A stretch of DNA of 20,000 bases from Reclinomonas americana ATCC 50394 (GCA_048213135.1 PS015203.1:118670-138669), one strand, 5' to 3'. Counted from the first letter of the stretch, positions 1 to 19,432 are shown. Made by a program: numbers and translations. Notes: generated by a model from the sequence alone, not told the origin.

Positions 1-3000
1 CAACGCCATTCAACACACAGCACACCAGTCGCACAATCAGCCGCTGCACTCGTGACACTGCATCGCCACATCGTCCCGCAATCCACCCAGCAATCTCGTC
101 GTGCACTCGATACTCCATCACCACGTTGCTCTCCCTCACTTGCTCACCACACAACACACGAGCCACACTGTCCATGCTGCCACTGACACCCACCGCCATC
201 AGATTCGACAAGCACAGACCCTCCAGCACCTCCTCCACTCCGTCGTCACCACCGCCCACCAACTCATCACGCCGTGCACGCACTCGCTGCTCCTCCTCCT
301 CACTCAACTCGTCAAACTGCAGTCGCCCACCTACCGCCTCGGGCGCACGTCGTCGCCTCTGCCGTGCCAGCTCATGCAGTCGCAGTCGACGCACACACTG
401 ACTCAACTCCACCAGTCGACCTGCCGCTTCCTCATCTTCATCACCATCACCATCCACAACCACCGCCACATCGGGTATCACTCGCAGCACACCCAGTGCC
501 ACTCGTGCGAGTGCAGCAGTCACTGGCAAGCCGAGTTCCTTGCACGCCGTGATCAACACCAACAGACGACGCGCTGCTGCTGTCTGTGACATCACATTGC
601 GCTCCAGCAGCTGCGACAGCGCGTCGCCACCAATGCCACTCAGCACCTCCTCCAGTCGCGCGCCCACCAGGTGCGCTGGCGACTGGGACAGCAACCAGCT
701 GCATGCCAGAAGGGAGAGAGAAGAGTGAGTCTTCCCATCCACACCACTCTCCCACGCACTCAAAGCACTCACCCAATACAACCACTCACTCGCAGTGCAC
801 TCTTCTCCTGTTGTCCACTCTCCAGCGCTTCCACGATCCGTTTTCGTACATCCTGTGACACCTTGTGGAGCAGTCGCTCCTCCACCAGCTGCACAATATC
901 CTCGTTCTCCACGCTCTCCACTCGCACGCACTCGACCTCTGCCTCGTAAACCATCGAGTCACGAATCTCATCAGCCACTCGCTCATACCGACTCGTCACC
1001 ACGACGACCGGTGCCACCATTCCATCTGATGATGCACATCAAGTCAGGATCCAACATCCAAGCAAGAATGAGAGTTCTCTCTCATGAAATACACACCCTC
1101 ATCAGCACATTGAACAACATTCCTCACTTGCTCCGCCGATCCCACATTGTCCAGCACCATCACTCCACTCGATGCATGCATCAGCTGTCGCAGCAGTCGA
1201 CGTGCTGGCTCCACCTCGCCACTTGCCAGCAGCGCATCCACCTGACCGGCCATCCTTCTTCCCTCTACTTCATCCACACGCATCTGCGCCATCACAAAGG
1301 CACGAAGACACTCGCCAAGGGCACTCTCCGCCTACAGAATGTAGCAGGGAGAGAGAGTCAGAATGACAGTAGAAGGAGACGACGAAGCACGAATGACGAC
1401 ATGCATGTTCCATCAGCACACACCTTCACATGTTCCCTCGCATCGCCCACATGACCACGCATCTCCACCGACACGGCCGATCCCTTCCATCGACGAGTCG
1501 CCTGCAACTCGGTCACCAGCAGCTCCGCCAGGAACGACTTACCAGTGCCACCGTCACCCGTCAGCACCACCATGATTGGTTGATGGGCTGCACAAGAAAT
1601 CATCAACCACCAGACAACATGATGAGGCACACGAATGTGGAAGAAGGAGGGGAGAAGGAGAAGGAACACCCAACCTTCCACAGCGTCCACAATGCGTGTG
1701 GCGAGCGAGGAAGCCAGTGCACGCCGACTCGGGAAGCGGAATGTGGTCACCGGATTGACGGTGCGGGCGATAAGCGATGTCTTGGGTGGGCGGCTGCTGT
1801 CTAGTGCTGAGTGCCACAGAGGAGTGAGTGTATGAGCAGCAATGCACATTCAATGCAGATCTATCATGGCGCGCACCTGCAGCTGAGGGAGAAGAGGGAG
1901 AGATGCTCATTGTGTCAAATCGTTGGTGCATTTCCATTCGCATCTGATAAATGACAAGCAAGTGAGAAACTGATAGGTATCTGAAAGTTACCGCCTCATG
2001 AAAATCCACTCAACTTGCTCCATTTGTGCTAGCAGCAACGGCCGGTCCGCCTGACTCAGCGCACCTGCATTCACACACAACCAAGAGAGCATCAGCATCC
2101 ACATTCAATCCAAACACAAACAAGCATCAGCCATCTGTCTCTCTCCACTCACCATCACGAGCCTCGTTCAGCTGCACCACCAATTCTTCCTCCACATCCC
2201 TGCCAATCTGCAGCTGCCGCACAAGCTGATGCAGCTCGCCCTCTCCTCCTCCTCCTCCGAGCAGAGGCACAAAGAGTGCACGTGCTCGTGCTGGACTCGC
2301 TTGCTCAAACACCTCCCTCATTCGGTCAATCGCATTGCGCTGAGGCAATGAGAGAGTGAGAAACATAATCACACAGAGAGGGAGATCACACTCTTCCTCC
2401 TCCTTCCCATCTCGCCTCCCTCTACACACTCACCACATCACCAGCTGGAATCAGACGATCCGGCTCGTCTCGCGGGTGCTCTCGATGACCCGCCAGCAGC
2501 AAGATCGAGCAGCACAGCATCGCACCAAATGAACTGCAGTCGTGCAGCAGGCCTCGCTGACGCCACTCGCGCACCAGCTGACGCTCCTTCTCGTTCAACT
2601 GGACACATTTGGCCACTCCGTCTGGCATGGTGCTGCGCGTGGGGAAAGGGACAAACAAAGAGAGGATGCTGGCGAGTGAGGGAGATGTGCGACAAGAAAA
2701 AGGGGATTCATCAGGGATGGAATGTGGAGTCGTGTGGTGAAATAATGAAGAGTGAGAGATGGGGAGAAAGGGTGACCAGTGCAGTCACTATCTGCCACTT
2801 TCTAGCAATCTTCTCTCTTCTCTCTCTCACTCATTCACATCTCCATCTGCATCCTGCCATCGTGTGCTTCCACATCATCCCCACACACTCACCGCACATC
2901 ACGCTCACTCGGCGCCTTGCACCACTCGGCAACATGATTCACACCGGGATATGAATCGAGAAACGCCGGCAGCACTTGCTCGAGTTTGGATTGCAAAGCG

Positions 3001-3273
3001 CGGGTGCATGGATGAGACAGTGCCTTGGCAAGGCGAATCACGCATTCCTCATCACCAGCATCGTGATCATGACTGCACGGGAGAGGAGAGTGACAGGGAA
3101 CGGATCACACACACACACACACACACATACACATACACACACACACATACACATACACACACACATACACACACACAGTGTGAGAACGATGATGATGATG
3201 ACGATGATGCATCTGACAACAACATAATGAGGGAGACACGCAACTCACGCGGCACTCCACTCCCACTCGCCAT
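1..3273 (-). CDS. NLR-like STAND NTPase paralogue B (3' end outside window) with an N-terminal putative HEPN_DZIP3-like module
   Basis: Hand-spliced exons with consistent phases: 3273-~3245, 3072-2893, 2632-2434, 2339-2153, 2064-2015, 1943-1877, 1800-1675, 1587-1424, 1331-1097, 1025-773, 698-<1. Walker A VVLTGDGGTGKS, Walker B GVMVLDN, sensor-1 VVVVTSR. From 1800 downward it is colinear with paralogue A. The exon-1 donor is uncertain. Confidence 0.8.
3106..3177. repeat. (CA)n/(CATA) microsatellite in intron 1 of paralogue B
   Basis: Directly visible. Confidence 0.95.
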
Positions 3274-3334
3274 GATGATGTGTCACAATACAAGAACAAC
3301 ACCAGCACGATGCACCGAGGAGCACGCTCTCTTT

Positions 3335-3373
<39 letters not shown>

Positions 3374-3520
3374 TTGTCACAATACGAAGCGGAGAAATGC
3401 AACAACTCACTCTCCTTCCTTTCCTCTCTCACACACGCACGCACAGTGGAAAAAGGCACTTACACAGAGCAGAAACAAGAACAAACACGCACTGCTCACA
3501 CGCTGGTTATTTACACAATT

Positions 3521-3539
3521 GTGGGACATGACTTCGTCG
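3521..3539. promoter_or_regulatory. Conserved upstream element of paralogue B
   Basis: The 19-mer gtgggacatgacttcgtcg is identical at 8184-8202; both lie ~250-300 bp upstream of the paralogue ATGs within diverged flanks. Confidence 0.5.
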
Positions 3540-3745
3540 GTGTGTGCATTGCTTGCCTACAACACAGAGCAGCGAGCCGACGAGGAGAGATACTTGGTAC
3601 CCGATACTTGTGCTCACAGATGTGGCATGGTGCACGCGCCGGTGGAATCATCGGGGTAACACGACGACGTCGCAAAGGCGTTCACGGAGAAGAGAGGATC
3701 GGCTTGTAACAAACAAAACACTTCATTCACCGGTACCACAATTAT

Positions 3746-6700
3746 TCACTGCTTCACGCCGGCTTCTCTAGCACGCCGCCGGCACTCGGCCAGTGCAGCA
3801 ACGGCCGCCATTGTATCGGAATGGCCTTCATCAAGGACCTTTTCCATACCACGCACACACTCCACCAGCAGCGCCTCCGCCTCGGCCCACCGCTGGTGCC
3901 TCATGAGCATGTCACCATAGTTACACATCGTCTCCAAAGTCTCTACATGCATTCTTCCAAGTACCACTCTATGTCCCTCCAAGCACTCTCGGTACAAATC
4001 TGCAGCTTCTGCCAGTGATTCCGGCGTGTTTTGTCGTTCCAGAGCATCAGCAAGATTGTTCATCGAGATGAGAGTGTCTGGATGCCGATCTCCCAGTTTC
4101 GAACGCGACAACTGCAAAGACTGTCTCTCAAGTTGAATCCTTTCCGCCAGACGACTGTCATCTTGAATAGATGCAGCAAGATTGCCCATGGACACCAAAG
4201 TGTCGAGATGCTCATCACCGAGAACCGATTGTCGCATGTCAAAGCATCGTCGGAAGACAGCTTCCGCATCGGTATATCCGCCGATATTAAAGTGATATTT
4301 GCCCTGCCAGTACATGGCCAATAGCGAGTCCGGATGACTGTCACCCAGTGTCGCACGCTGCCGCTCATGACACAGCACCAGTTGAGACAAGTTGTTTGAA
4401 TAGAATGCACACCACATCAAGCACCGCAACGTGTCAATCTTATCTAGCACAGTCATCTCGTCACCGTGATCTCTCTCCCACTCTTCGCACAGACGCCACG
4501 CCTGCTGCCACGCCGCTTTGCAATCAGCAGCCCGACGGAGCAACAACCAAGCTTGGCACTTTTCTGAAGCAATCGCTAATCGTCGTCGCAGTGGACTGAT
4601 CTCAACATCACCATCTTCACCTTCTCCACATTCTGACACTCGTCGCACAAGCAATGAGGCCACTGCGTCGTCAAATCCAACAGATGGCAATTTTCCTCCG
4701 ACACACTGCAAACCGATCCATCCCAAAGCTACACACTGTCCCAGCAACCCATTCACACCAACAGTATCACTCGCCCACATGTCGTCGTCGTCGCCCAACC
4801 TTCGCCACACAGTGTTCAGTACACTAAGCAAGTCACGCGACACCAAAAGCACACCATCACTGTCGTTTAGTGTATCAATGCCATTCAGCACACAACACAC
4901 CAGTCGCACAATCAGCCGCTGTGTCCTGGATACAGCATACTCCCACCGTCCAACAATCCACCTAGCAATCTCGTTGTCAACTTGATACTCAACAACAACA
5001 CCGCTCCGTTGCTCAATCGAGCCACACAGTATTTGGGCCAAACTATCCATGCTGCCACTGACTTCCACCGTTACCAGATTCGAGACGCACAGACCCTCAA
5101 GCACATCCTCCACTCCGTCGTCCTCACCACCACCACCACCCACCAACTCATCACGCCGTGCACGCACTCGCTGCTCCTCCTCCTCACTCAACTCGTCAAA
5201 CTGCAGTTCCTCACCCACCACCTCACGCGCATACCGTCGCCTCTCTCGAGCCAGCCCATGCAGTCGCAGTCGGCGAACACACTGACCCAACTCTACCAAC
5301 CGGGTTGCCGCCTCCTCATCTTCATCCGCAGCAGCCTGCCTACTATCACCACCGTCATCAGGAATCGCCAAATCGGGAATTACCCGCAACACACCCAGAG
5401 CCACTCGTGCAAAGCCTGGTGTCACTGGCAAGCCGAGTTCCTTGCACGCCGTGATCAGCACCAACCGACGACGTGCTTCTGCTGTCTGCGACATCACATT
5501 GTGTTCCAGCAGCTGCGACAGCGCCTCTTCACCAACGTCACGCAGGACTTCTTCCAGTCGTGCGCCGACCAGCTTTCCTGGAGACTGCGCATGCGACAGC
5601 AACCAGCTGCACCACAAGGAGAAGAGAGAAGAGTTAGGCATCACATCCACACCACTCTTACTCACCCAATCACTTACTTAACACAAGCGCTTACTCGCAA
5701 GGCACTCTTATTCTGCTGTCCGTTCTCCATCGCCTCCACAATCCGCCGTCGCACCGCTCCCGAAACCACTCCACGAAGTCGCTCTTCCACCAATTGCACA
5801 ATATCTTCTTTCTTCACATCCTTCACTTGCTCGCACTCCACAATTGCATGATGTTCCATCGAGTCACGAATCTCATCCGCCAACCACCCATGTCGACTCG
5901 TAACCACCACAATCGGTGCAACCAGTCCATCTGCACGTAGAAACACAGACACACACACGATGGACAAAAGGTCAGGACCAAACATCCAAGCAAGAATGGA
6001 TTTCTCTCTCACGCACACGCACCCTCGTCAGCACATTGAACAACATTCGTCACTTGCTCTGACGATCCCACATCGTCCAGCACCAATACTCCACTCGATG
6101 CATGCATCAGCTGTCGCAGGTGACGACGTGCTGGCTCCACCGCACTACTCGCCAGCAGCGCATCTACCTCACCGGCCATCCTTGGTCCCTCCTGTGTATC
6201 CACTCGCATCTTCGCCGTCACAAACGCACGCAGACACTCGCCCAGAGCACGCTCCGCCTGCAGCGCATGTCAAGAGAGACCAAGTCAGAAAGGCAACAGA
6301 AGGATCTCAGATGGTGCTTCAGGAAAGACAACATGCACCTTCACATGCTCTCTCGCATCACCCACATGGCCTCGCATCTCCACCTGCACGGCAGATCCTG
6401 TCCACCGACCGGTGGCCTGCAACTCGGTCACCACAAGGTCGGCCAGGAACGATTTGCCAGTGCCACCATCACCCGTCAGCACTACAATAATTGGACGTCT
6501 TGCTATAGACGTACATCGTCATCAAAGACAATTTGATAAGACAAATGAGTGTGGAAAAGAAAGAAAGACGGAAACGACCAACCTTCAGCAGCACACACTA
6601 TGCGTTCTGCAAGTGAGATTGCCAATGCACGGCGACTGGGGAATCGGTAAGTAGTCACTGGATTGATGATGCGGGCAATGAGCGGTGACCGAAGTACTGT

Positions 6701-7888
6701 GGCATCGAGTCAGTAACTGAGCACTGTAGAGTCCGTGCACCAGTGCAAATGTTGCTTGATACATGTACAGATAGTTTCTCTGCTGCTCACCTGGATGCAA
6801 GCGCAACCGAAACACGTTGAGCGCATACTCGGACAACCTGTGCCGCTGTACGGGTTCTTGTTGTCGGTCCAGTGGTTGCGCGTTGGGAATCAGAAGCCTG
6901 ACTTGTTCGTGCCAATCATGCAGCGGCAAGTGCCCGTGGCTATTGATGGCCGCAACGAGCGCTTGCGCATATGGCGATGTGTAAACTGCAACGCACCGAA
7001 CTTGCGCACGTCAGAAAAACCAGTAAACGGTACGACGGAATTCTAGTCGTGACGCACCGCCCTCGTATGCTTCCCAGCCGTGATAGCAAGCAAAACTAAC
7101 AAACACGTTTTGTGCCAGAACGCTCTCCTCAATCGGGCCCACACCTTGTTGGAAGATGCTTCGCCCAGGCGCACAGAGAACAAGTGAGAAACAACAACAC
7201 AAGCATCGCTCTGCAAAAACGTCTCACACCTATCGAAGGAACGACAACAGTTCGTTAACAAGACGATTACTGTGCGCGTTGACGCTTTCTGGCGCAGTTG
7301 GTTCATGCAGTTCGCGATAAGCTTTAGCGACGTTTTCCCTTTCATCTGTGCAGCTCGGGTCAATCCAAGACCCAGACAAAAAATCTGGGGAGGAAACAAA
7401 CTCACCAAACTATCTTTTGAGACACTGTTGACGTTGCTCGGAAGAAGCAGCAGGTCGCCGTTGATCGCAAGACCATGACCAGAGAAGAACAGCAGCACGC
7501 ATTCGCACTCCCCATTCACCTCCGTGGCTACGAACTCGTCAAGCACAGAGTTCATGGCATTGCCTTCCACATCGATACAAGGTGGGCTGACATGAAAGCC
7601 AATTCCAGCAAGCACTGGCTGCAACAGAGCTGCGCGATGCCAAGCAAATGTCAAGCACTGTCGGCTGACTGACATTCGAACGATTACGCACCCACATCAT
7701 GCGGGGGGTTACTCAGGGACCCAAACTCTCCTTCACCGTCGCAAGTGTTGCCAATGAGTAATGCCACACGCTTGTGTTGCCTGAAACAAAGACAGAGATC
7801 GTGTGAATACATAGCTCGCACAGAGATCTGACAACAACACAACGACAGTGACACGCAACTCACGCGGCACTCCACTCCCACTTGCCAT
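3746..7888 (-). CDS. NLR-like protein A: caspase-fold (peptidase C14) domain + STAND/NB-ARC-like NTPase + kinesin-light-chain-type TPRs
   Basis: Exons: 7888-~7860, 7780-7692, 7629-7406, 7345-~7229, ~7150-7058, 6985-6791, 6696-6583, 6502-6339, 6257-6023, 5930-5678, 5606-3746 (TGA). Caspase motifs KRVALLIGN, LSNPPHDV, LFFSGHG, LLLLP, VLLTNCCR, FVSFAC..G..AYEG, SPYAQAL, QQEP. NTPase motifs GDGGTGKS, VLVLDD, IVVVTSR. C-terminal LG..HPDTL repeats. The exon-1 junction and one internal junction are ambiguous. Confidence 0.88.
3790..4348 (-). repeat. About 4.5 coding TPR units of ~42 aa (KLC / TPR_10-12 type)
   Basis: LGDSHPDSL, LGDEHLDTL, LGDRHPDTL, LGRMHVETL and LDEGHSDTM recur at 42-45 aa spacing in ORF 3746..5665. 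Confidence 0.9.
6791..7780 (-). other. Caspase-like (C14, orthocaspase/paracaspase-type) domain of protein A, spread over 5 exons
   Basis: Catalytic His codon 7477-7475 (FSGHG) and Cys codon 7246-7244 (NCCR); p20-like and p10-like motifs occur in the expected order after splicing. Confidence 0.85.
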
Positions 7889-7938
7889 GATGATGCGTCA
7901 CAACAAGAATAACAGCAGCACCGGTGCACAGGGGGAAT

Positions 7939-7974
<36 letters not shown>

Positions 7975-8183
7975 CTCTCTCTCTCTCTCTCTCACTCAAT
8001 AACACACTGGGAAATCAAAAAACACACTGAATGCTCTCCTTTTCTCTCTTGCGCACACGCACGCAGTTGGGAATGCCAGTGAGACAGACAGGCAGAGAAC
8101 ACGCAAGCTCACTGCTGCTCAACAGCAGCAAACCAGTCGACCAAGTCGCAAACGACTCGAGTCTCGCAAACGAAACGACTCTC

Positions 8184-8202
8184 GTGGGACATGACTTCGT
8201 CG
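8184..8202. promoter_or_regulatory. Conserved upstream element of paralogue A
   Basis: Exact match to 3521-3539. Confidence 0.5.
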
Positions 8203-8393: not shown

Positions 8394-10601
8394 TCACTTT
8401 TTCACAAGCTGATCCGCCACCAACCACAACCCCGTCTCCTGCATGATCTCCACCTTGGTAATTACCCGCCCCAACACATGTACGACGGTGACGCCAAAGC
8501 CTTCCACCGACTCCGGCAGCAAATCGTTCTGCAGCAGCGACGCGAATCCCAGCGGACTGGTCACTTGCCGCATGTCGAACCAGTCGACACGCAGTCGGCC
8601 GAGTCGCGTGTGGTAGTCCAGCGAGAAGTTGAGCAGATCCTGCTCGTTCCACGTGGACCAGTGCACATCCAGGATGCCAATCATGTACGCCATCAGGCGC
8701 AATGAGTACACGGTCGGGCGTACGGCCAGCACGCCGCTGTTGATGCAAAAGTGGCGCTGATGTTCCTGACAGGCGGCGTATCGCTGAAAGGGAGACGAAG
8801 AGGAAAGAGAGTCAGAAAAGGAGAAAAGCATGGAGGAGAAGACGAAGAGGAAAGACAGTCAGAAAAGGAGAAAAGCATGGTGGAGACGACAAGGAGAGAG
8901 GTACTTCAGGGAAAGGAGAAAACCACGGAAGAGACGGGAGGTGCATCAGGGAAAGGAGAAAAAGCAAGGCGTTTGTAATCACAAACGTGTCGACAGCCAA
9001 TGAACCGGAACTCATGTGAGAGCGCAAACAATGGAGAATGCGAAACTGGTGATTCTAAAGACAGCACGCAACACACAAGAGAGTCTACGCGAATGGATAC
9101 AATGTGCAAACGGAAGCATGTTATATGACAATGCAGAAAGAAAATCGCCTTCTCCCTCACCCTCACCCTCACCCTCCCCTCCAACTCACCCACGACCCCT
9201 CCTCCGACGTACACGTCCCCGGTCCGACACTCCACGGCGCACGCACCCGCATCACCGGCGACAGCTTCACAAAATTGTCGGGATTGCAACTGCCGCAGCA
9301 GTCCGACATGACCCACACATCCGGCTGCACCGACGCCGCCGCACCGCGCAGCTGCGCCATCAACCGCAAGTCGTCCACCACCGGCGCATCGGCATCGGCG
9401 TGGAACGCCACAAAGCCACAGCGCAGGAGCAGGTACACGTAGAGCTCCTTCAGATTGATCTCGCCATGGAATCCCTCGGCCGCCATGCCCTTGCCAACGT
9501 GCCTGCCGCAAGAAAGGATGAGCAAAAAAGCACGCGCTCATCTTTCTCCTTCCCTCAGCGCACCACTGCGTCTCATCGAGAATGGCAACGGTGGGGAACA
9601 CATGACCGAGGTGCGCCACCACAATCTTGTGCGTGAACTGGTCGGCGCACACCACCAGCGGCAAGTGGCCGGGGTGCGAGCGCACGAAATGCGCCACCCA
9701 GTTAGCCAGCACCAGTACCCACGCCTGCCGCTGCTTCTCTGTCGCTGACGGCAACAAGAAGAACGTGGTGAAGACCACCATGCGCTCCCCATTTTCCAGC
9801 GTCAGCACAAAGTCGCCGTTGTGCAGGAGGTGGTGGTGGAGGCGGCGGAGGGCGTCGGCATTTTCGCGATACGCACTCGGCGGCGGGAAAAGGCCCAGCG
9901 GTTGCGGAGCATCGCTGTGGCCGAGTGCGGCTGCCGTCTCGGCGAGCACCGCGCGCGAGGTGAGTGCCGTCCACAGCACCTGCTCCGCCTGGAAGCACAA
10001 CGCCGAGGGGATGAATTCGGGTCGGAAGCGGCTGCCGGCGGGCGGCTGCATGCGATTGGGGAGGGGTGGTGGTTCGGCGATCGAGGCGCGCACCGAAAAG
10101 TCGGGGCCAATGTGTGAGCAGTCGCAGGTGGGTGGCGGGAGGCTTCCTGTGGGACATGAGGGAAAGGAGAGGGTAAGAGGGAAAGGTGGAGGGTATGAGG
10201 GAAAGGAGGGGGAGTGGGAGTGTGAGAGGGAGGGTAAGAGGGAAAGTTGAAGGGGAGGGAGAGCGGAGTGGAGAGAGGAAAGAGGGAGAGGGAGTGGGAG
10301 ATAGAAAAGGGGGGAGGGAAAAGTTAGAAGGGAGAATGAAAAGAATAAGGAGAGGGAGAGGGAGAGGGAGAGGGAGAGGGAGAGGGAGAGGGAGAGGGAG
10401 AGGGACAGTGAACAGGGTAAGAGAGACCGACAGATTGGAAAACAGAGGGTCAGTGAGGGAGCGGGAGAGAGGCAGCTACGCGTGACAGAGGGATAGACAG
10501 ACGGAGAGAGATCCATAGACGATACTGCTAGTTGTGGCAGGAGACGGAGAAAAAGAAAGAAAAGAGACACAAGGCAGGCAAATAGACGGTCAGTGAGAAA
10601 G

Positions 10602-10677
<76 letters not shown>

Positions 10678-10680
10678 GTC

Positions 10681-10726
<46 letters not shown>

Positions 10727-13624
10727 GAGGCAGGCAGTGTGTGTGTGTGTGCGCGTGAGAGAGATGGAGAGAGAGATTGAATCAAGAAGACACGAAGAAC
10801 AGTGAGTACGAAGGCACATGGTATGAGAGAAAGTGAAGCAGACAGTCCTCACTCCACGGTAATGTTGCAGGAAACACACCATCGGTGGTCGCCGACGGGA
10901 GAGTCAGACACGCCAGGTTGCACAGCGCATCGTCCTTGGTGGCGCTCGCCAACGTGGAGTGAATCATCGAGCCGCCATACATCCACTCGGAGAACACAAT
11001 GCGCGGATGTGTGACAGATGTGGGTGGTATGTGCAGCAGCGCAGCATATGGTGACTCGGCCGGTAGCACGCTTGTTGTTTGGCGTGGGGTGTGGAGGTGC
11101 TGCGGTGCAGGCAAAGGAGGTGAGAGCGGGGAAGAGGGGGAAAGAGGGAAAGGGAGGGAGGGAGGAAGAAAAGGGGAAAAGGGGAGAGGGGAAGAGGGGG
11201 AAAGAGGGGAAGGAGGGGAAGGAGGGGAAGGAGGGGAAGGAGGGGAAGGAGGGGAAGGAGGGGAANNNNNNNNNNNNNNNNNNNNNNNNNNNNNNNNNNN
11301 NNNNNNNNNNNNNNNNNNNNNNNNNNNNNNNNNNNNNNNNNNNNNNNNNNNNNNNNNNNNNNNNNNNNNNNNNNNNNNNNNNNNNNNNNNNNNNNNNNNN
11401 NNNNNNNNNNNNNNNNNNNNNNNNNNNNNNNNNNNNNNNNNNNNNNNNNNNNNNNNNNNNNNNNNNNNNGAAGGAGGGGAAGGAGGGGGAAGGGAGGGGG
11501 AATGAGGGGGAAGGGAGGGGGGAGGAGGGGAAGGAGGGGAAGGAGGGGAAGAGGGGAAGAGGGGAAGGAGGGGAAGGAGGGGAAGAGGGGAAGAGGGGAA
11601 GAGGGGAAGAGGGGAAGAGGGGAAGAGGGGAAGAGGGGAAGAGGGGAAGAGGGGAAGAGGAGAAGAGAGGATGAGGGGAAGAGGGAATGACGAATGGAGA
11701 GAAGGAGAGACAAGGAGGCAGAGAGACTTGCTGAGAGCACGAGGGCAAAAGTACAGAGAAAAGGTGCAGAAGTGACGGCAGGAAGAGGGCGACATGGAGA
11801 GGGAGAAGCAGCGGGAGATCCGCGAGGGGAAGAGTGTGTGAATGAGAAGGAAACAAACGAAAGAGACAGAGAGAGACAGAGAGAGCGAGAGAGAGAGAGA
11901 GACGGGGGAGATAAAGAGAGATAGGAGTGGGAGAGAGCGACAAAGAAGCGAGAGGCGAATATGCTTTGGAGTAGAGAAGGAGAGTGCAGAGAGGAATTGA
12001 ACATAGAAGAGCGGGAGGAGGAGGGAGAGAAGGAGGGAGGAAGAGCACACGAACACAGAACGAGTGGGCAGTTCTCTCAAAGGAGTCGAAGCACACACAG
12101 ACTTGCATTCGTGGAAAACCTCACCTTACTAAAATACGCCCGCAACATCTTCGGCATGGAGCAGTGCGCCTTGGCGATCTGCACAATACAGTGAGCAGAC
12201 CGGAGAAGCATTCGTGGGGCGAGTGGCAAACCATGTTGACATCCATGTCCAGTCTCTGAATCACCGCATCTTTCACTGCCAGAGGCAGCCCATAGTCGGC
12301 CAGAAACTTGTCAACTGTGATGATAAAAAGGGGTGAACAGCAATCACTCTTGTGCGCGAGTACTATTACGCAGCAACATATTCCACGGGAGCAGGACTAG
12401 TTGCGGCTCTCTATCTGTCTGGCAGTGCAGTGCTGCTCTCTTTCTTTGGGTTCTCTTCCCTCCATCGCCGGTGTGACAGCCGCAGGCAGATACCTGCAGG
12501 TCTTCCCTCCCTCTCTCCCCCTCCTCCCCCACCCACCTGAATCACCCACAGTCTTCCCATGATTGAGCTTCAGCTCCATCGGGAACCCCAACGCCGGAAT
12601 CGTCAGCTGCACGCCAGTGAAGAACGGCAGCGTCCACAACGGCGTGTCGTCCCGAACATACACTCGACAGTCGCTGTCGACCTGCAACAGCGGCTGCGTA
12701 GCATCGCGCTCGTGCTGCTGCTGTTGCAGCGACGGTGATGGCGGTGGCGTCAGCTTGACATTCGGATCCTGGACGACACACGACAAGAGTCAGCGATGTG
12801 ATGCATCGCAGCACAGAGTGACGAGGGGACGCACCGTAAGTTGCGCAAGGACCGAATCGCACAGACGCTGCTCTTCGGCTGCCGTCCACATGCGATGCTG
12901 TTGCAGGAAGGCGCGTGCTGTGAAGGCAAGGGGAGAGTGAGGGGAGGGCAAGGGAGAGGGAGGGGGAAGGGAAAGGAGGAGAGAGAGGGGAAGGCGGAGA
13001 GGGAGGGAGTGAGAGAGGGGAAGAGATAAAGAGGGAGAAAGAGAATGAGTGAGTGCGAGAGGGAGAGAGGAAATGAGAGAAAGAGAGAGAAGGAGACGCA
13101 GAGCAAGAGGGGAAAGAGGGGGAAGAGAGAGGAAGAGAGGGGAAGGAGGGGGAAAGAGGGAGAAAGAGGGAGAAAGAGGGAGAAAGAGGGGAAGAGAGGA
13201 TGGGAGGATGAGAGGATGTGGATATGAGGGGTAAGGGGAAGTGGACGACGAGGGAAGAGGGGAAGAGGAGAGCGAGAACGAGAGAATGAAAGAGAGAACG
13301 AAAGAGAGAAGGAGAGCGAGGGAGTGAGTGAGCGTGAGAGAGAAAGGGAATAAGCGTCACAGAGTAAAGGAAATGCAGAGTGAGTGAGAGAGTGAGGGAG
13401 TGTGTGAACGAGAGGAGGCAGAGTGCGTAAGGCAGAGCGAGAACGAGGAAGTGGATGTTTGTGAGATAGCCAGAGAGAGAAGATGAAGAACAAAGAGGGA
13501 CGGGAAGTGCGAGGGATGTACATGTGAGAGGGCAAGAGAACGAGAGAATGCATGGCACAGAGAGCGAACGAGTGAAGCAATGCAGAAAGAGCGAGTGGCT
13601 GCATGTGCGAGAGGTAGAAAGTGG

Positions 13625-13655
<31 letters not shown>

Positions 13656-13759
13656 TGCGTGGAAGCATGAGAGATAGAGGAAGACAGAAGGAGAAAGAAA
13701 GCGAACGAGTGATGGAGAAACACAAAGAGCGCAAATCAGTGAATGCTGAGTGAGTGAGG

Positions 13760-13808
<49 letters not shown>

Positions 13809-14160
13809 GACGTGGTGAAGTACGAGTGAGTGAGTGCGTGTGCGAGGGCAAGTGAGTGGAAGCACGAGAGAGGAAGAAAGAAGGAGAAAAGAAAGCGAAC
13901 GAGTGACTGAGAAGCATAAAGAGCATCAGTGAAAGAAATGCAGAGAGAGAGCGAAGGACAGAGAGAGAATGCACGCGAGGGAATGAGTGAATGACTGCAG
14001 GCGCGCTTTATCCGTCGCCTACCAATGCACATGCCTGCAGAATCTCTCTCCCATTCTCCCTTACTCTCTCTCTTTCTCACAATCCCAAAGCACTGCCTCT
14101 CTCTCTCTCTCACACACACAGTCCCAAAGCACGCCTTCCCTCACTCTTACGCACACTCTC

Positions 14161-14208
<48 letters not shown>

Positions 14209-14228
14209 NNNNNNNNNNNNNNNNNNNN

Positions 14229-14259
<31 letters not shown>

Positions 14260-14500
14260 TCTCCATCCTTCTTCCCTTCCTCCCCCTCCCTCTCTCCTCC
14301 TCTCCTCCTCTCTCTCTCTCTCTAACACACGCACATACACACACGCACACACACACACACACAGAATCATGCTCTCTCTCTCTCTCTCAGTCCATCTGCA
14401 GGTTGCTTCTCTCCCTCTTCCCCTTCCTCCCTCCTTCCTCTCTCTCTCCCTCCCTCCCTTCTTCCTCCCTCCCTCCTCTCTCCTCCTTCTCTCTCTCCCT

Positions 14501-16010: not shown

Positions 16011-19000
16011 ATGGCAGACGACGACGACGACTATCATGGCGATCACGCGGGCGGCTCCGGCTCTCGTTCGCGCCCTCCACGCACGTTTTTCTTTCGCACG
16101 GCCTCGACCATCTACACACACGTGGCGCGAGTGCTGCGTGAGACAGCAGGCGAGTGGACAGAGGTGATCGCCACGAGCACTGGAAAATCATCGCAGCAGC
16201 GGCCTCAATCTGCTGCATTTCCCGCCAAAACCGCGCCGGTGACACTGCGCGCGGATTTGTGGTTGTTGTCGCGTTGGGAGGTTCCGTGGGCGTCGATTGC
16301 AACAGAGACGGCCGTCAATCACATTCGCGGGACGAATCAGATTACGGTGAAGGGATTGCTGATCAAATCGTTGGGATCGCTGACGGGAAGGGAGCTGTCG
16401 TTTGTGCCGGAGACGTTTGTGGTGGTGCCGGGGGGTGCGGGCTCGGAGTTGGATGAGAGGGAGGTGTTTGTGCAGGTGAGGGAAAAGGGGGGGAAGAAAG
16501 GGGAAGGAAGATGGAGGGGAAGGGAGGGTGGAGGGGAAGGGAGAGAGAGAGGAGAAGGGAGGGGGAGAAGGAGGGAGGGAGATAAGGGGGAAGGGAGGAG
16601 GGGCTGCGAGAGAAGCCGTGATCATTCGAGAACGTCTTGTCTCTCCTTGCTTAGCTGACGGACGAGTGTACAGAGAGGAGAGAGGGAGGGAGAGAAGGAG
16701 AAGGGCGGGGGGAGAGGGAGGGCTGCGAGAGAAGCCGTGTTCATTCGCGAACGTCTTGTCTCTCTCCCTCCCTCCCTCCTCTCTGTGCACTCGTCCTTCC
16801 GCTGAGTAAGGAGAGAAGAGAGATGACAGGAAGAGGTGAGTGTCGCAGGAAGAGATGAAAGACAAGAGTATGACAAGGGAAAATACGAAAAACGAAGAAA
16901 GAGAGACACGAGAGACAGAGAGAAAGAGGAGAAGAGAAGAGTCATTCTAGTGCAAAGAGATGACTTGAAGAGGGAATGGAGAGAAGGAGAAGGGAGGGGG
17001 GAGAGGGAGGGCTGCGAAAGAAGCCGTGTTCAATCGAGAACGTCTTGTCTCTCCTTACTCAGCGGAAGGGCGAGTGCACAAGGGAGAGATAAGGGGGAAG
17101 GGAGGAGGGGAAGGGAGAGAAGCCGTGTTCATTCGAGAACGTCTTGTCTCTCCTTACTCAGCTGAAGGACGAGTGCACAGAGAGGAGGGAGGGAGGGAGG
17201 GAGAGAGAAGGAGAAGGGAGGAGGGGAAGGGAGAGAAGCCGTGTTCATTCGAGAATGTCTTGTCTCCCCTTGCTCAGCGGAAGGACGAGTGCAGAGAGAG
17301 GAGGGAGGGAGGGAGGGAGGGAGGCGAAAGAACACGTCGCCATGTTGTTTCAAGTTGTCTTTCCTTGCTTCAACTGAGGGAGGGAGTGGGAGGGATGCGA
17401 GAACGACTTTTCTTTCCTTGCTTTCATGACTCGCAGCTTCGCGAGGCAGGCACGAAAGGAGGAGAAGCGAGATGGGAAGAATTGGCTGCGACTTGGAGAG
17501 AGTGAAAGAGAAGGCAGAGAGACGATGCCGTGTTGTGTTTTCGTCTTCTCCTTCTCCGTTTTTTCTTCTTCTTCTTCTCTCCAACTCCATCGCTTCCTCT
17601 TTTCCGTCTTCTTCGCCTTCTCTCTCTCTCTCTTTGTGGTTCTGAATGATGATAAGGACGGAGAGTGCAGCATTCTCTCGCCGTTGTCCTCCACCTCCTC
17701 TCATCCTTTTCTCCTTCTGCGCTTACTTTTTCTCTCTCCATCTCTGTCTCTCTCTTTCTCGCTGAGAGACAAGAAAGACTGTGACTTGACGGTGAGAAGG
17801 CAGAGAGTCGGTCGAGAGACAACACTGAGTTGATTCAAGAACGACTTGTCTTTCCTTACTTCGGCGAGACAGGAGACAGAAAGTGGGTAGAGGCGACGCC
17901 GTGTTGTGTCACGTATGCGTGTCATTTCTTGCTTCCGCTTCCGCGCGCGTGCGAGAGAGAGAGATACACACACACACACACAAACAGAAGAGAAGCGATA
18001 GGAATAGACTTTGTCTCCAGGGTGAGAGTGAAACAAGAAGAGAGGTATGAGTGTGGAGATTCTCTTTCCTTGCTTTCTCAAGCACGCCGCTGAGAGAGTG
18101 AGCGCGAGTTTGTCTTGATGCCGCAGAAGCAGAGCGACAGCAGAGAAGAGTATATCGCAGACTCTCCGTGCCAGTGTCTCAGTCGTGTTTGAGGAAGAGA
18201 GTACTCGTGAAGATGTCGTGGCTTTCTTCTTCACAAATGTTTGCTGCAGAGTCTCAACGGCGACTTGTCCTTCATGCTTTCCCCTGCGCCCTCTGCTTCC
18301 GCACCCACAAATGAAACCATCACCCTCATCTGTCCCTCCCTTTCCCCTGTCCCTTTCCCCTCTCTAACCCCATCCCCCCTTCCCCCTTCCCTTTCCCCCC
18401 TCTTCCCCCTTCTCCCCTCTCTCACCCTTTCCCCTTCACCCTTCCCTCCCAGGCCGCCTCTCGCGAAGGCTCCACCTCCGTCTGGCTCTGCAAACCCACC
18501 AACGGCGGCCACGGCACCGGCATTGAGCTGTTTCGCGACCCCGCCGCGGCCATTGCGTACGTCGAGTCGCACCTGGCCGAAGATACCACCGAGGAGACGG
18601 AGGTCACGGCCTCCGCCGCAGCAGAGTTGCACCCTCCTCTTCCTCCTTTGCTATGAACTTACCTCACTCACCTCTCCCTCTCCAGCAAACCCTGGAAGCG
18701 CCCACGACAGAAGCGCCCGCCGGCGGCCTGGGTCGTGCAGCGATGCATCGAGCGCCCGCTGCTCTTCCCACCCTCTCTCCGCAAATTCGACATTCGCTTC
18801 CTCGCCGCCATCACGCACGACATGCAGCTGCTGTGGTATCGGCGGTACATTATGCGCATGTGCTCCGAGCCGTACGACTTGTCGCAGCTGGACAATCGCT
18901 TCTCCCACATTTCGAACCACTGCGGTACGTCCTCCACCTGCTTCCCCCCTCCCCCTCTTCCCCCTTCCCTCACTACGCGCACACCGCAGTGCAAACGGCC

Positions 19001-19432
19001 AGCGAATCGTACGGCCGCGAGGAGCTCGGCAACGAGCGCTTCACCGAGCACCTCGCGCAGCACCTGCAAGAGGCGCACGGCGAGGTGCGCGGTCGCCAGC
19101 TGCTGGAGCACATTGAGCGGCAGATGCGCAACATTGTGCGCGTGACGGTCGGCGCCTGCATGGACCACATTCGTGGCGACAAGGACTACCTCGCGTTCCA
19201 GCTGCTCGGCTACGACTTTCTCATTGACGAGAATCACCACGTGTGGCTGCTGGAGGTCAACGGCAGTCCGGCGTGCGCCGACAGCATGGCCGACAAGTTT
19301 GCGTGCGATGTCATTGCCTCGGTGGTGCAGCGCGCGTTTCCGCCGATTGCCGAGGGTGTGGACCTCGGCGGCGCACCGAGCCTCTTTGAGGAGATGAGGT
19401 GGGAGGAGGAGGAGCAGGAGGAAGCGGATTAG
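16011..19432 (+). CDS. TTL: Tubulin-tyrosine ligase
   Basis: Exons 16011-16475, 18453-18625, 18686-18924, 18990-19432. Motifs VNHIRG..QITVK, FVPETF, DEREVF, WLCKP..GGHGTGI, WVVQRCIERPLL..RKFDIR, HISNHCVQ...YG.EE.GNE and FQLLGYDFLIDE..VWLLEVNGSPACA; the NHC.Q/YG..E.GNE and NG.PAC features point to TTL proper rather than other TTLLs. Confidence 0.9.
16600..17300. repeat. Intronic ~70-bp repeat family (5 direct copies plus 1 inverted half-copy) with GA-rich spacers
   Basis: agaagccgtgttcattcgagaacgtcttgtctctccttactcagcggaaggacgagtgca(c/g)aga near 16611, 16730 (5' half), 17020, 17117 and 17234; reverse complement of the 3' half at 16781-16814. Confidence 0.9.

Follow-up and report, generated by a model that had tools for sequence, protein, structure and literature searches.

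Tandem NLR-like genes of Reclinomonas americana with a common leader exon and NTPase-TPR chassis and different N-terminal blocks

How does a receptor gene exchange the effector that it encodes while the rest of the gene stays in place? Receptors resembling the nucleotide-binding, leucine-rich repeat (NLR) proteins and bearing swappable effectors occur in plants, animals, fungi and bacteria; in other eukaryotes, and as regards the mechanics of a swap at the level of DNA, little is known about such receptors to our knowledge. Two neighbouring genes, here called A and B, raise this question on the minus strand of a 20,000-nucleotide (nt) stretch from Reclinomonas americana ATCC 50394 (GCA_048213135.1 PS015203.1:118670-138669), referred to below as the window. 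Our analysis supports A and B as tandem paralogues with a layout of N-terminal effector, NTPase and tetratricopeptide repeats (TPR). We consider it probable that the locus holds two intact paralogues of this kind, encoding STAND-type (NLR-like, most likely NB-ARC-like) P-loop NTPases with C-terminal TPR_10/12 repeats, that duplication was followed by replacement of one block, and that the proteins would work as switches by analogy with STAND proteins.

The gene models, built by hand from three-frame displays with all junctions predicted, comprise the following features.

3746-7888, minus strand: gene A, complete, 11 exons, 1126 amino acids (aa), joined frame open to the TGA at 3748-3746
7888-7860, 7780-7692, 7629-7406, 7345-7230, 7158-7058 and 6985-6791, minus strand: gene A exons 1-6
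6696-6583, 6502-6339, 6257-6023, 5930-5678 and 5606-3746, minus strand: gene A exons 7-11
7860-7888, minus strand: gene A exon 1, 29 nt, MASGSGVPR plus 2 nt, start context atcATGg, donor GTTGCG at 7859
1-3273, minus strand: gene B, 11 exons seen, 731 aa, joined frame open, 3' end cut by the window edge inside exon 11
3273-3245, 3072-2893, 2632-2434, 2339-2153, 2064-2015 and 1943-1877, minus strand: gene B exons 1-6
1806-1675, 1587-1424, 1331-1097, 1025-773 and 698-1, minus strand: gene B exons 7-11

All 20 introns have GT..AG borders, with GTG donors at 14, GTT at five and GTA at one. They measure 60-94 nt in gene A and 70-260 nt in gene B, whose long introns are the first (172 nt) and the second (260 nt). 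No frame break interrupts the 1126 codons of A or the 731 codons of B. Spliceosomal introns, together with a tubulin-tyrosine-ligase gene elsewhere in the window, support a eukaryotic origin of the DNA; they do not bear on the earlier label 'microbial'.

The DNA common to the two genes was delimited by blastn of minus-strand positions 8400-3601, the A region, against 3600-1, the B region. This comparison, close to a dot-plot that a reading of the sequence alone (the sequence-only reading) had proposed, returns three common segments, namely an upstream 19-mer, a leader block of ~106 nt and a long match over what we call the chassis. Elsewhere between these segments only (GA)n or (GT)n microsatellites match.

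8184-8202, minus strand: copy A of an upstream 19-mer that both genes have, 296-314 nt ahead of the gene A ATG
3521-3539, minus strand: copy B of this 19-mer, 248-266 nt ahead of the gene B ATG and ~200 nt past the gene A stop
7826-7929, minus strand: conserved block A, which takes in 41 nt of leader, the whole of exon 1 and intron 1 as far as its nt ~35 (blastn and alignment)
3211-3315, minus strand: conserved block B, the counterpart of 7826-7929 (blastn and alignment)

The 19-mer at 8202-8184 equals that at 3539-3521 at 19/19 positions and occurs exactly twice in the window with up to three mismatches allowed; because two or more matches arose in 0/200 dinucleotide-preserving shuffles, the pair lies beyond chance. 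The leader block (7929-7826 versus 3315-3211) is 87.7% identical over 106 positions, and the chassis match (6687-4876 versus 1779-1) is 76.8% identical over 1851 nt. Exon by exon, A and B agree at 28/29 positions in exon 1, 81/114 in exon 7, 134/164 in exon 8, 204/235 in exon 9 and 183/253 in exon 10, and from A254/B246 onward 373/497 aligned residues of the proteins are identical (75%). The sequence-only reading had named the 19-mer, the leader and the MASGSGVPR exon as shared and had proposed tandem paralogues on an NTPase-TPR chassis, and both claims stand, the latter also on the Walker motifs and the strong TPR_10 and TPR_12 matches given below. Its further claim that every NTPase exon and intron position is shared needs one correction: exons 8, 9 and 10 are of equal length in the two genes (164, 235 and 253 nt) and introns 7-10 align, but exon 7 differs at its 5' end (114 nt in A versus 132 nt in B).

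Introns 7-10 of A and B are 64.6-82.6% identical, compared with means of 43.6-45.9% and a maximum of 59.5% in shuffles (20 for each intron); introns 2-6, at 39-61%, are at about background. Since introns 7-10 still align above their shuffles, the duplication was genomic and included the introns. Over 486 shared chassis codons the synonymous divergence (dS) is 0.526 and the nonsynonymous divergence (dN) 0.153, and the resulting dN/dS of 0.291, taken with the unbroken frames, therefore indicates purifying selection on both copies.

Simple repeats accompany the leader and promoter of each gene.

7940-7997, unstranded: leader/promoter of gene A, with the microsatellites (AC)16 and (CT)13

The corresponding part of gene B has (CT)18 at 3339-3374. 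An 18-nt tandem repeat (2.2 copies) at 8146-8184 adjoins the 19-mer of gene A and has no counterpart in gene B.

What lies between the leader exon and the chassis differs from one gene to the other. The models reproduce exactly the limits that the sequence-only reading had set for the two cassettes.

6791-7780, minus strand: effector block of gene A (exons 2-6), caspase-like, with the motif SGHG for the His and NCCRS for the Cys (Pfam Peptidase_C14)
1877-3072, minus strand: gene B effector block, exons 2-6, ~235 aa, with the hydrophobic stretch LLHDCSSFGAMLCCSILLL (hand-built model)

Between the two blocks blastp gives only chance-level matches and hhalign a probability of 0.3%, and tblastn of each against the whole window (E up to 10) yields neither remains of its counterpart nor a third copy of the chassis. 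These results support the earlier claim that the N-terminal blocks, set between a common leader exon and a common chassis, are unrelated.

The block of gene A had been called a caspase, and Pfam agrees. Because intron 3 is in frame and free of stops, 7229-7627 could be scanned as one piece, and it scores 29.9 bits with Peptidase_C14 (PF00656), above the cut-off of 21.4 (E 5.8e-7), in a match to profile positions 29-128. Exon 6 resembles the C-terminal (p10-like) part of the same family weakly (positions 180-224; E 0.31, 11.1 bits), and further weak matches of the block are to NCBIfam caspase_w_EACC1 (E 0.0018) and to a PADLOC caspase model (E 0.058). Exon 2, which has no ATG, contributes the first strand of the domain. 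In the read-through translation FFSGHG places a His at residue 52 and TNCCRS, where the Pfam match ends, a Cys at 128/129, and we presume that the two are positioned as the catalytic dyad expected of the caspase family. The evidence supports a caspase-family (clan CD) domain as the effector of gene A, with predicted protease activity. An AlphaFold2 (AF2) model of the read-through has a mean predicted local distance difference test score (pLDDT) of 35.9, too low to use; no relatives of the read-through were found among longer proteins, and PDB sequence and profile searches with the caspase piece gave no relevant match.

Two observations may be added on this block. Intron 3 (7346-7405) is 60 nt long, in frame and stop-free, and its retention would lengthen the caspase by 20 residues, inserted between the part with the His and the part with the Cys. 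A Nocardia brasiliensis protein (P0020) with NACHT-like/AAA_16 and TPR regions has an N-terminal FIGHG stretch at residues ~48-103, which matches the SGHG region of the gene A caspase by BLASTP (E 0.001) and phmmer (E 0.008); a Pfam scan of that stretch finds no caspase domain. P0020 may be a bacterial counterpart of the gene A architecture.

The block of gene B has a single hydrophobic stretch, with a Kyte-Doolittle maximum of 1.67 over 19 residues. Searched exon by exon, Pfam, PADLOC and NCBIfam assign it to no family, and an Atlas search with exon 3 returned no cluster with a family (best score 0.85). Its codons score 0.316 log-odds per codon in frame, close to the 0.437 of the gene B chassis, versus -0.28 and -0.20 out of frame; by this measure the modelled frame is the one frame of the block that appears to be coding.

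The chassis begins with the NTPase core, which in gene A is placed as follows.

5678-6696, minus strand: NTPase core of gene A, encoded by exons 7-10 and carrying LTGDGGTGKS (Walker A), VLVLDDV (Walker B) and VVVTSR (motifs and NB-ARC-TPR profile)

The LTGDGGTGKS P-loop stands in exon 8 of both genes and VVVTSR in exon 10 of both; the motif of exon 9 reads VLVLDDV in A (6024-6257) and VMVLDNV in B (1098-1331), with Asn for Asp at the second acidic position. We take the latter two motifs to be Walker B followed by the sensor-1 Arg in a TSR/TTR strand. Pfam scans covered single exons. The P-loop of exon 8 drew AAA_16 (E 5.5e-4), NPHP3_N, nSTAND3, NB-ARC and NACHT, all below cut-off, and exons 9 and 10 gave no NB-ARC or NACHT match. 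A custom profile of the nucleotide-binding oligomerisation domain (NOD) was made from 71 of 80 fetched bacterial NB-ARC-TPR loci, those whose long open reading frame (ORF) gave an alignment of more than 250 positions with the NOD of one such protein (P0016). It scores the spliced proteins at 21.8 bits for B and 11.7 bits for A, weak values, whereas none of 21 decoys, made by 20 shuffles and one reversal, exceeds -0.4 bits, and its matches span the P-loop and also the stretch from Walker B to TSR. By hhalign the chassis pairs with bacterial NB-ARC-TPR proteins at 74% probability over 275 collinear columns, its Walker B and TSR opposite their LLVLDNV and LITSR. These results support, and do not prove, an NB-ARC-like STAND core.

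Other searches with the core were negative. A phmmer search with the NOD against the 25 proteins that match the TPRs found nothing, and PDB sequence and profile searches with exons 9, 10 and 11 gave no relevant match. PADLOC and NCBIfam report only P-loop noise on the chassis; in PADLOC this includes a 22-residue Avs2 match to the P-loop (E 0.053), and exons 9-11 match nothing there. No PADLOC model of an Avs (antiviral STAND) family matches the chassis beyond the P-loop. Read-through of exons 8 and 9 across intron 8 meets two stop codons.

Most of the remaining protein is encoded by the last exon, which in the complete gene A divides into two parts.

4340-5606, minus strand: the first ~420 aa encoded by gene A exon 11, a putative helical/winged-helix-like region
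3746-4339, minus strand: gene A TPR array and stop codon (Pfam TPR_10 and TPR_12)

After the nucleotide-binding domain, exon 11 has YRVHDEIA in B (2-697) and YQVDNEIA in A (4877-5605), at a putative MHD-type site that we liken, as an assumption of ours, to the MHD motif of plant and Apaf-1 NB-ARC proteins. In the translation of gene A exon 11, residues ~423-600 match the Pfam families TPR_10 (E 1.4e-25) and TPR_12 (E 3.9e-21), and TPR_NPHP3 and NPHP3_N are also among the weak matches. No LRR is present, and we therefore call the proteins NLR-like, not NLRs in the strict sense. Against longer proteins exon 11 has 25 matches, each covering only 17-41% of the query, a likeness of the TPRs only. 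Residues 1-400 of exon 11 have no relative among 1.84 billion representative proteins and none in a word-index search, and an AF2 model of this part from two sequences has a mean pLDDT of 40.4, too low to use. In metagenome contigs, the 29-mer of exon 1 plus donor was found 0 times, and the alignment of the A and B exons 11 gave 65 pattern matches, 0 of them confirmed by tblastn.

Where, then, does the similarity between A and B break off? The 5' breakpoint lies inside intron 1, ~35 nt past the donor, and in gene B a microsatellite follows.

3106-3177, unstranded: (CA/TG)36 microsatellite that fills gene B intron 1 just past the 5' breakpoint

The 3' breakpoint falls at the border of intron 6 and exon 7: intron 6 is unrelated, and homology resumes inside exon 7, 9 nt into it in A and 27 nt in B. 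A phase-2 intron precedes exon 2, and a phase-1 intron precedes exon 7, in A and B alike. The phase-2/phase-1 bounds that had been read as making the cassettes interchangeable are thus real, but they are forced: intact frames together with common exons 1 and 7 leave no other phases, which therefore provide no independent evidence for interchangeability, and the argument from phase is circular.

The phase-2 join of exon 1, moreover, requires the weak donor GTTGCG, with a canonical GTGAGT 4 nt upstream in both genes. These double-donor sites (7859-7864 in A and 3244-3249 in B, minus strand) lie within 32 nt of sequence that is identical between the genes. GTGAGT was rejected as the donor of intron 1, since with it the reading frame of A meets a stop inside exon 2 and that of B meets one after 11 codons; the phase-2 junction alone keeps exon 2 open in both genes. 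Since the use of GTGAGT would truncate both proteins, the paired donors could reflect splice-level control or could be a sign that the models start in the wrong place. GTT donors are needed at intron 7 of both genes too, where the flanking exons are well conserved, and gene B intron 5 needs a GTTGAG donor. Alternative joins of gene B exons 5 and 6 were rejected for an 11-nt intron or a clash of phase.

We propose a model in which a tandem duplication of genomic DNA copied the promoter, the 29-nt leader exon and the chassis exons with their introns. Then, in one copy, an internal stretch that begins within intron 1, takes in exons 2-6 and ends in the first codons of exon 7 would have been replaced. 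This would have left A with a Peptidase_C14 protease and B with an unrelated module of ~235 aa, and either block could be the ancestral one. By analogy with STAND switches, the TPR array would bind a trigger, upon which the NTPase would exchange nucleotide and oligomerise. Oligomerisation would bring the N-terminal modules together, and proximity would activate the protease of A, with B giving a different output from a similar chassis. A role in defence or cell death, as proposed in the sequence-only reading, is plausible.

Several points weigh against this reading. Every splice junction in A and B is predicted from the DNA, and the GTTGCG donor of intron 1 is weak and stands beside a competing GTGAGT that would truncate both proteins. 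The module of gene B has no recognisable fold or family in the libraries searched, and the caspase block of gene A fits the codon usage of the chassis poorly, at 0.021 log-odds per codon in frame; it might be a newcomer to the gene, or the value might be a mere effect of amino-acid composition. In the single-exon scan, exon 8 reaches 13.9 bits for NB-ARC (cut-off 23.5) and 12.8 bits for NACHT (cut-off 26.7). The NB-ARC likeness is modest and was measured against an NB-ARC profile alone, with no NACHT profile beside it, and hhalign with thin alignments matched mainly the P-loop region, at probabilities of 3-63%. Finally, the comparison rests on two genes, and the sensor end of B lies beyond the edge of the window.

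If some of these doubts were to prove decisive, the gene models might be an artefact, with one or both N-terminal blocks being separate genes or non-coding and the NTPase genes beginning downstream. The weak and contested donor of intron 1, the long introns 1 and 2 of gene B (172 and 260 nt), the GTTGAG donor at its intron 5 and junctions predicted from the DNA sequence would all fit such an artefact. It is nevertheless highly unlikely in our view: exon 2 is open in one frame only in both genes, the frame set by the common exon 1; that of A has no ATG and yet supplies the first strand of the caspase; no other in-frame start precedes exon 7; GTT donors are needed at the well-conserved intron 7 of both genes as well; and codon scores favour the modelled frames. 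Differential loss, in which an ancestor carried both blocks behind exon 1 as mutually exclusive cassettes and each copy deleted one, would explain the equal entry and exit phases, which mutually exclusive use demands, and would sit well with a gene B block close to the chassis in codon usage. However, tblastn (E up to 10) detects no trace of the other gene's block in A or in B, the gene A introns in this region (60-94 nt) are too short for remnants, and no precedent for such an arrangement appears in those parts of the literature that were covered, so that we consider this history very unlikely.

A broader proposal, that of the sequence-only reading, is that A and B belong to a larger family in which intron-bounded cassettes, phase 2 at entry and phase 1 at exit, are swapped systematically in the space between a constant leader exon and a constant NTPase-TPR chassis. 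The positions of both breakpoints, inside intron 1 with a microsatellite next to it in B and at the border of intron 6 and exon 7, are what such shuffling would leave, as is the retention of the leader exon and the 19-mer, and fungal NLR paralogues that are 80-90% identical do differ by N-terminal swaps (PMC4986451). Against it, there are two genes only, whose intact frames force the matching phases; a cassette with 2/1 phases is asymmetric and so fits this gene context only; tblastn finds no further cassette or chassis copy in the 20 kb; and no relatives turned up in the protein libraries or metagenome contigs searched. Such a family is, we think, unlikely, and it is quite unlikely that it takes the more elaborate form of a plug-in receptor family, in which the promoter motif, the leader exon of 10 codons and the STAND-TPR chassis would all be fixed and would accept interchangeable multi-exon effector cassettes between phase-2 and phase-1 introns, and the paired intron 1 donors (GTGAGT out of frame, GTTGCG in frame) would serve as a splice-level safety switch on a death-effector output. 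The architecture could also be right and the role not defence: the genes may encode a switch for developmental or stress-induced cell death, or a TPR signalling scaffold of the nephrocystin-3 or kinesin-light-chain type. Such a role would agree with the weak TPR_NPHP3 and NPHP3_N matches, with a chassis dN/dS of 0.29, which is ordinary purifying and not diversifying selection, and with the lack of any PADLOC defence family beyond P-loop noise. We hold it less likely than not, though a live alternative, as tandem duplication, effector replacement and a fused caspase-type protease together form the pattern that is described, for bacteria and fungi, in STAND proteins of immunity and conflict (PMC7159879, PMC10197012).

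Duplication followed by block replacement, the history we favour, has its closest parallels among fungal NLR-like proteins, which join NB-ARC or NACHT to TPR, ANK or WD40 repeats and carry combinatorial N-terminal effectors (Dyrka et al. 2014, PMC4986451). A and B share their tripartite order of effector, NOD and TPR, as well as the preference of NB-ARC for a TPR partner if the NOD here is NB-ARC-like, and fungal paralogue pairs that are 80-90% identical in NOD and repeats bear different N-terminal domains much as A and B do (PMC4986451). N-terminal swapping between close paralogues is documented in fungi (PMC4986451, PMC13449251) and has been inferred for NLR-like proteins of animals (PMC3879445). 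Unlike in the fungal proteins, the NOD of A and B stays under the Pfam cut-offs, and the swapped block is internal, behind a conserved leader exon and promoter motif. The portions of the fungal NLR literature covered contain no intron-level account of swaps (the word 'intron' occurs 0 times in PMC9815663 and once in PMC13449251), and a swap of an intron-delimited multi-exon block behind a retained leader exon was not found in the literature within our scope, which took in neither supplements nor subscription papers. Fungal NLRs with a fused, caspase-related CHAT protease have been described (PMC10197012), as have prokaryotic NTPase conflict systems with caspase-like effectors (PMC7159879). Unlike those CHAT NLRs, gene A has a domain that matches Peptidase_C14 (PF00656), not CHAT, and Pfam searches of neighbouring ORFs recognised no gasdermin-like neighbour in the window.

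In brown algae, single repeat exons of candidate receptors of the NB-ARC-TPR and LRR-ROCO types are shuffled (PMC11378527). As at our locus, these are tandem duplicates in a eukaryote that is neither plant nor animal, and introns of uniform phase permit the exchange of modules; the shuffled units there, in contrast, are single sensor repeat exons, all of phase 2, and here a five-exon effector block (PMC11378527). Unlike in the algal genes, the TPR array of gene A lies whole in one exon of 1861 nt. The bacterial NB-ARC-TPR STAND proteins from the 80 loci introduced above (L001-L080, mostly actinobacteria) have Walker A, Walker B and ITSR/VTSR collinear with those of A and B, a Walker B consensus of LVLDNV as in gene B, and TPR_10/12 arrays 30-36% identical to the TPRs of exon 11. 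They differ in that the likeness outside the TPRs is weak (11.7-21.8 bits) and in that A and B each have 10 spliceosomal introns.

In the Apaf-1/caspase-9 apoptosome and the NLR inflammasomes of animals, a STAND switch oligomerises and proximity activates a caspase, and it is by analogy with this logic that we picture gene A. The caspase of those systems is a separate protein, recruited via CARD or death-fold adaptors; that of gene A, by contrast, forms one protein with the NTPase, and the searches revealed no death-fold domain.

The locus would thus record, at nucleotide resolution, one swap between close paralogues, in which the promoter motif, the leader exon and the chassis introns were kept and a five-exon block was replaced. 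A second feature is the direct fusion of a putative C14-type caspase to a STAND-TPR body; the proteins have no detectable relatives in very large sequence libraries. If the genome holds more members with the same boundaries, they would provide a concrete, testable mechanism of effector diversification; otherwise A and B are another instance of a known evolutionary habit.

Upstream of gene A, an open frame at 8909-10102 on the minus strand contains the non-repetitive stretch FVLTLENGERMVVF and has no Pfam match; it may be a neighbouring gene. From 10000 to 14400 run long CT/GA-rich tracts of low complexity, with spurious long ORFs on both strands and a GC skew of up to 0.78. The 224 N in the window form two runs (11266-11469 and 14209-14228), which are assembly gaps far from genes A and B. 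On the plus strand, 16053-16430 and 18899-19429 belong to a gene of the tubulin-tyrosine-ligase (TTL) family, with a Pfam TTL match at E 8e-14 on the last exon, and ~2.4 kb of low-complexity sequence separates the two coding pieces.

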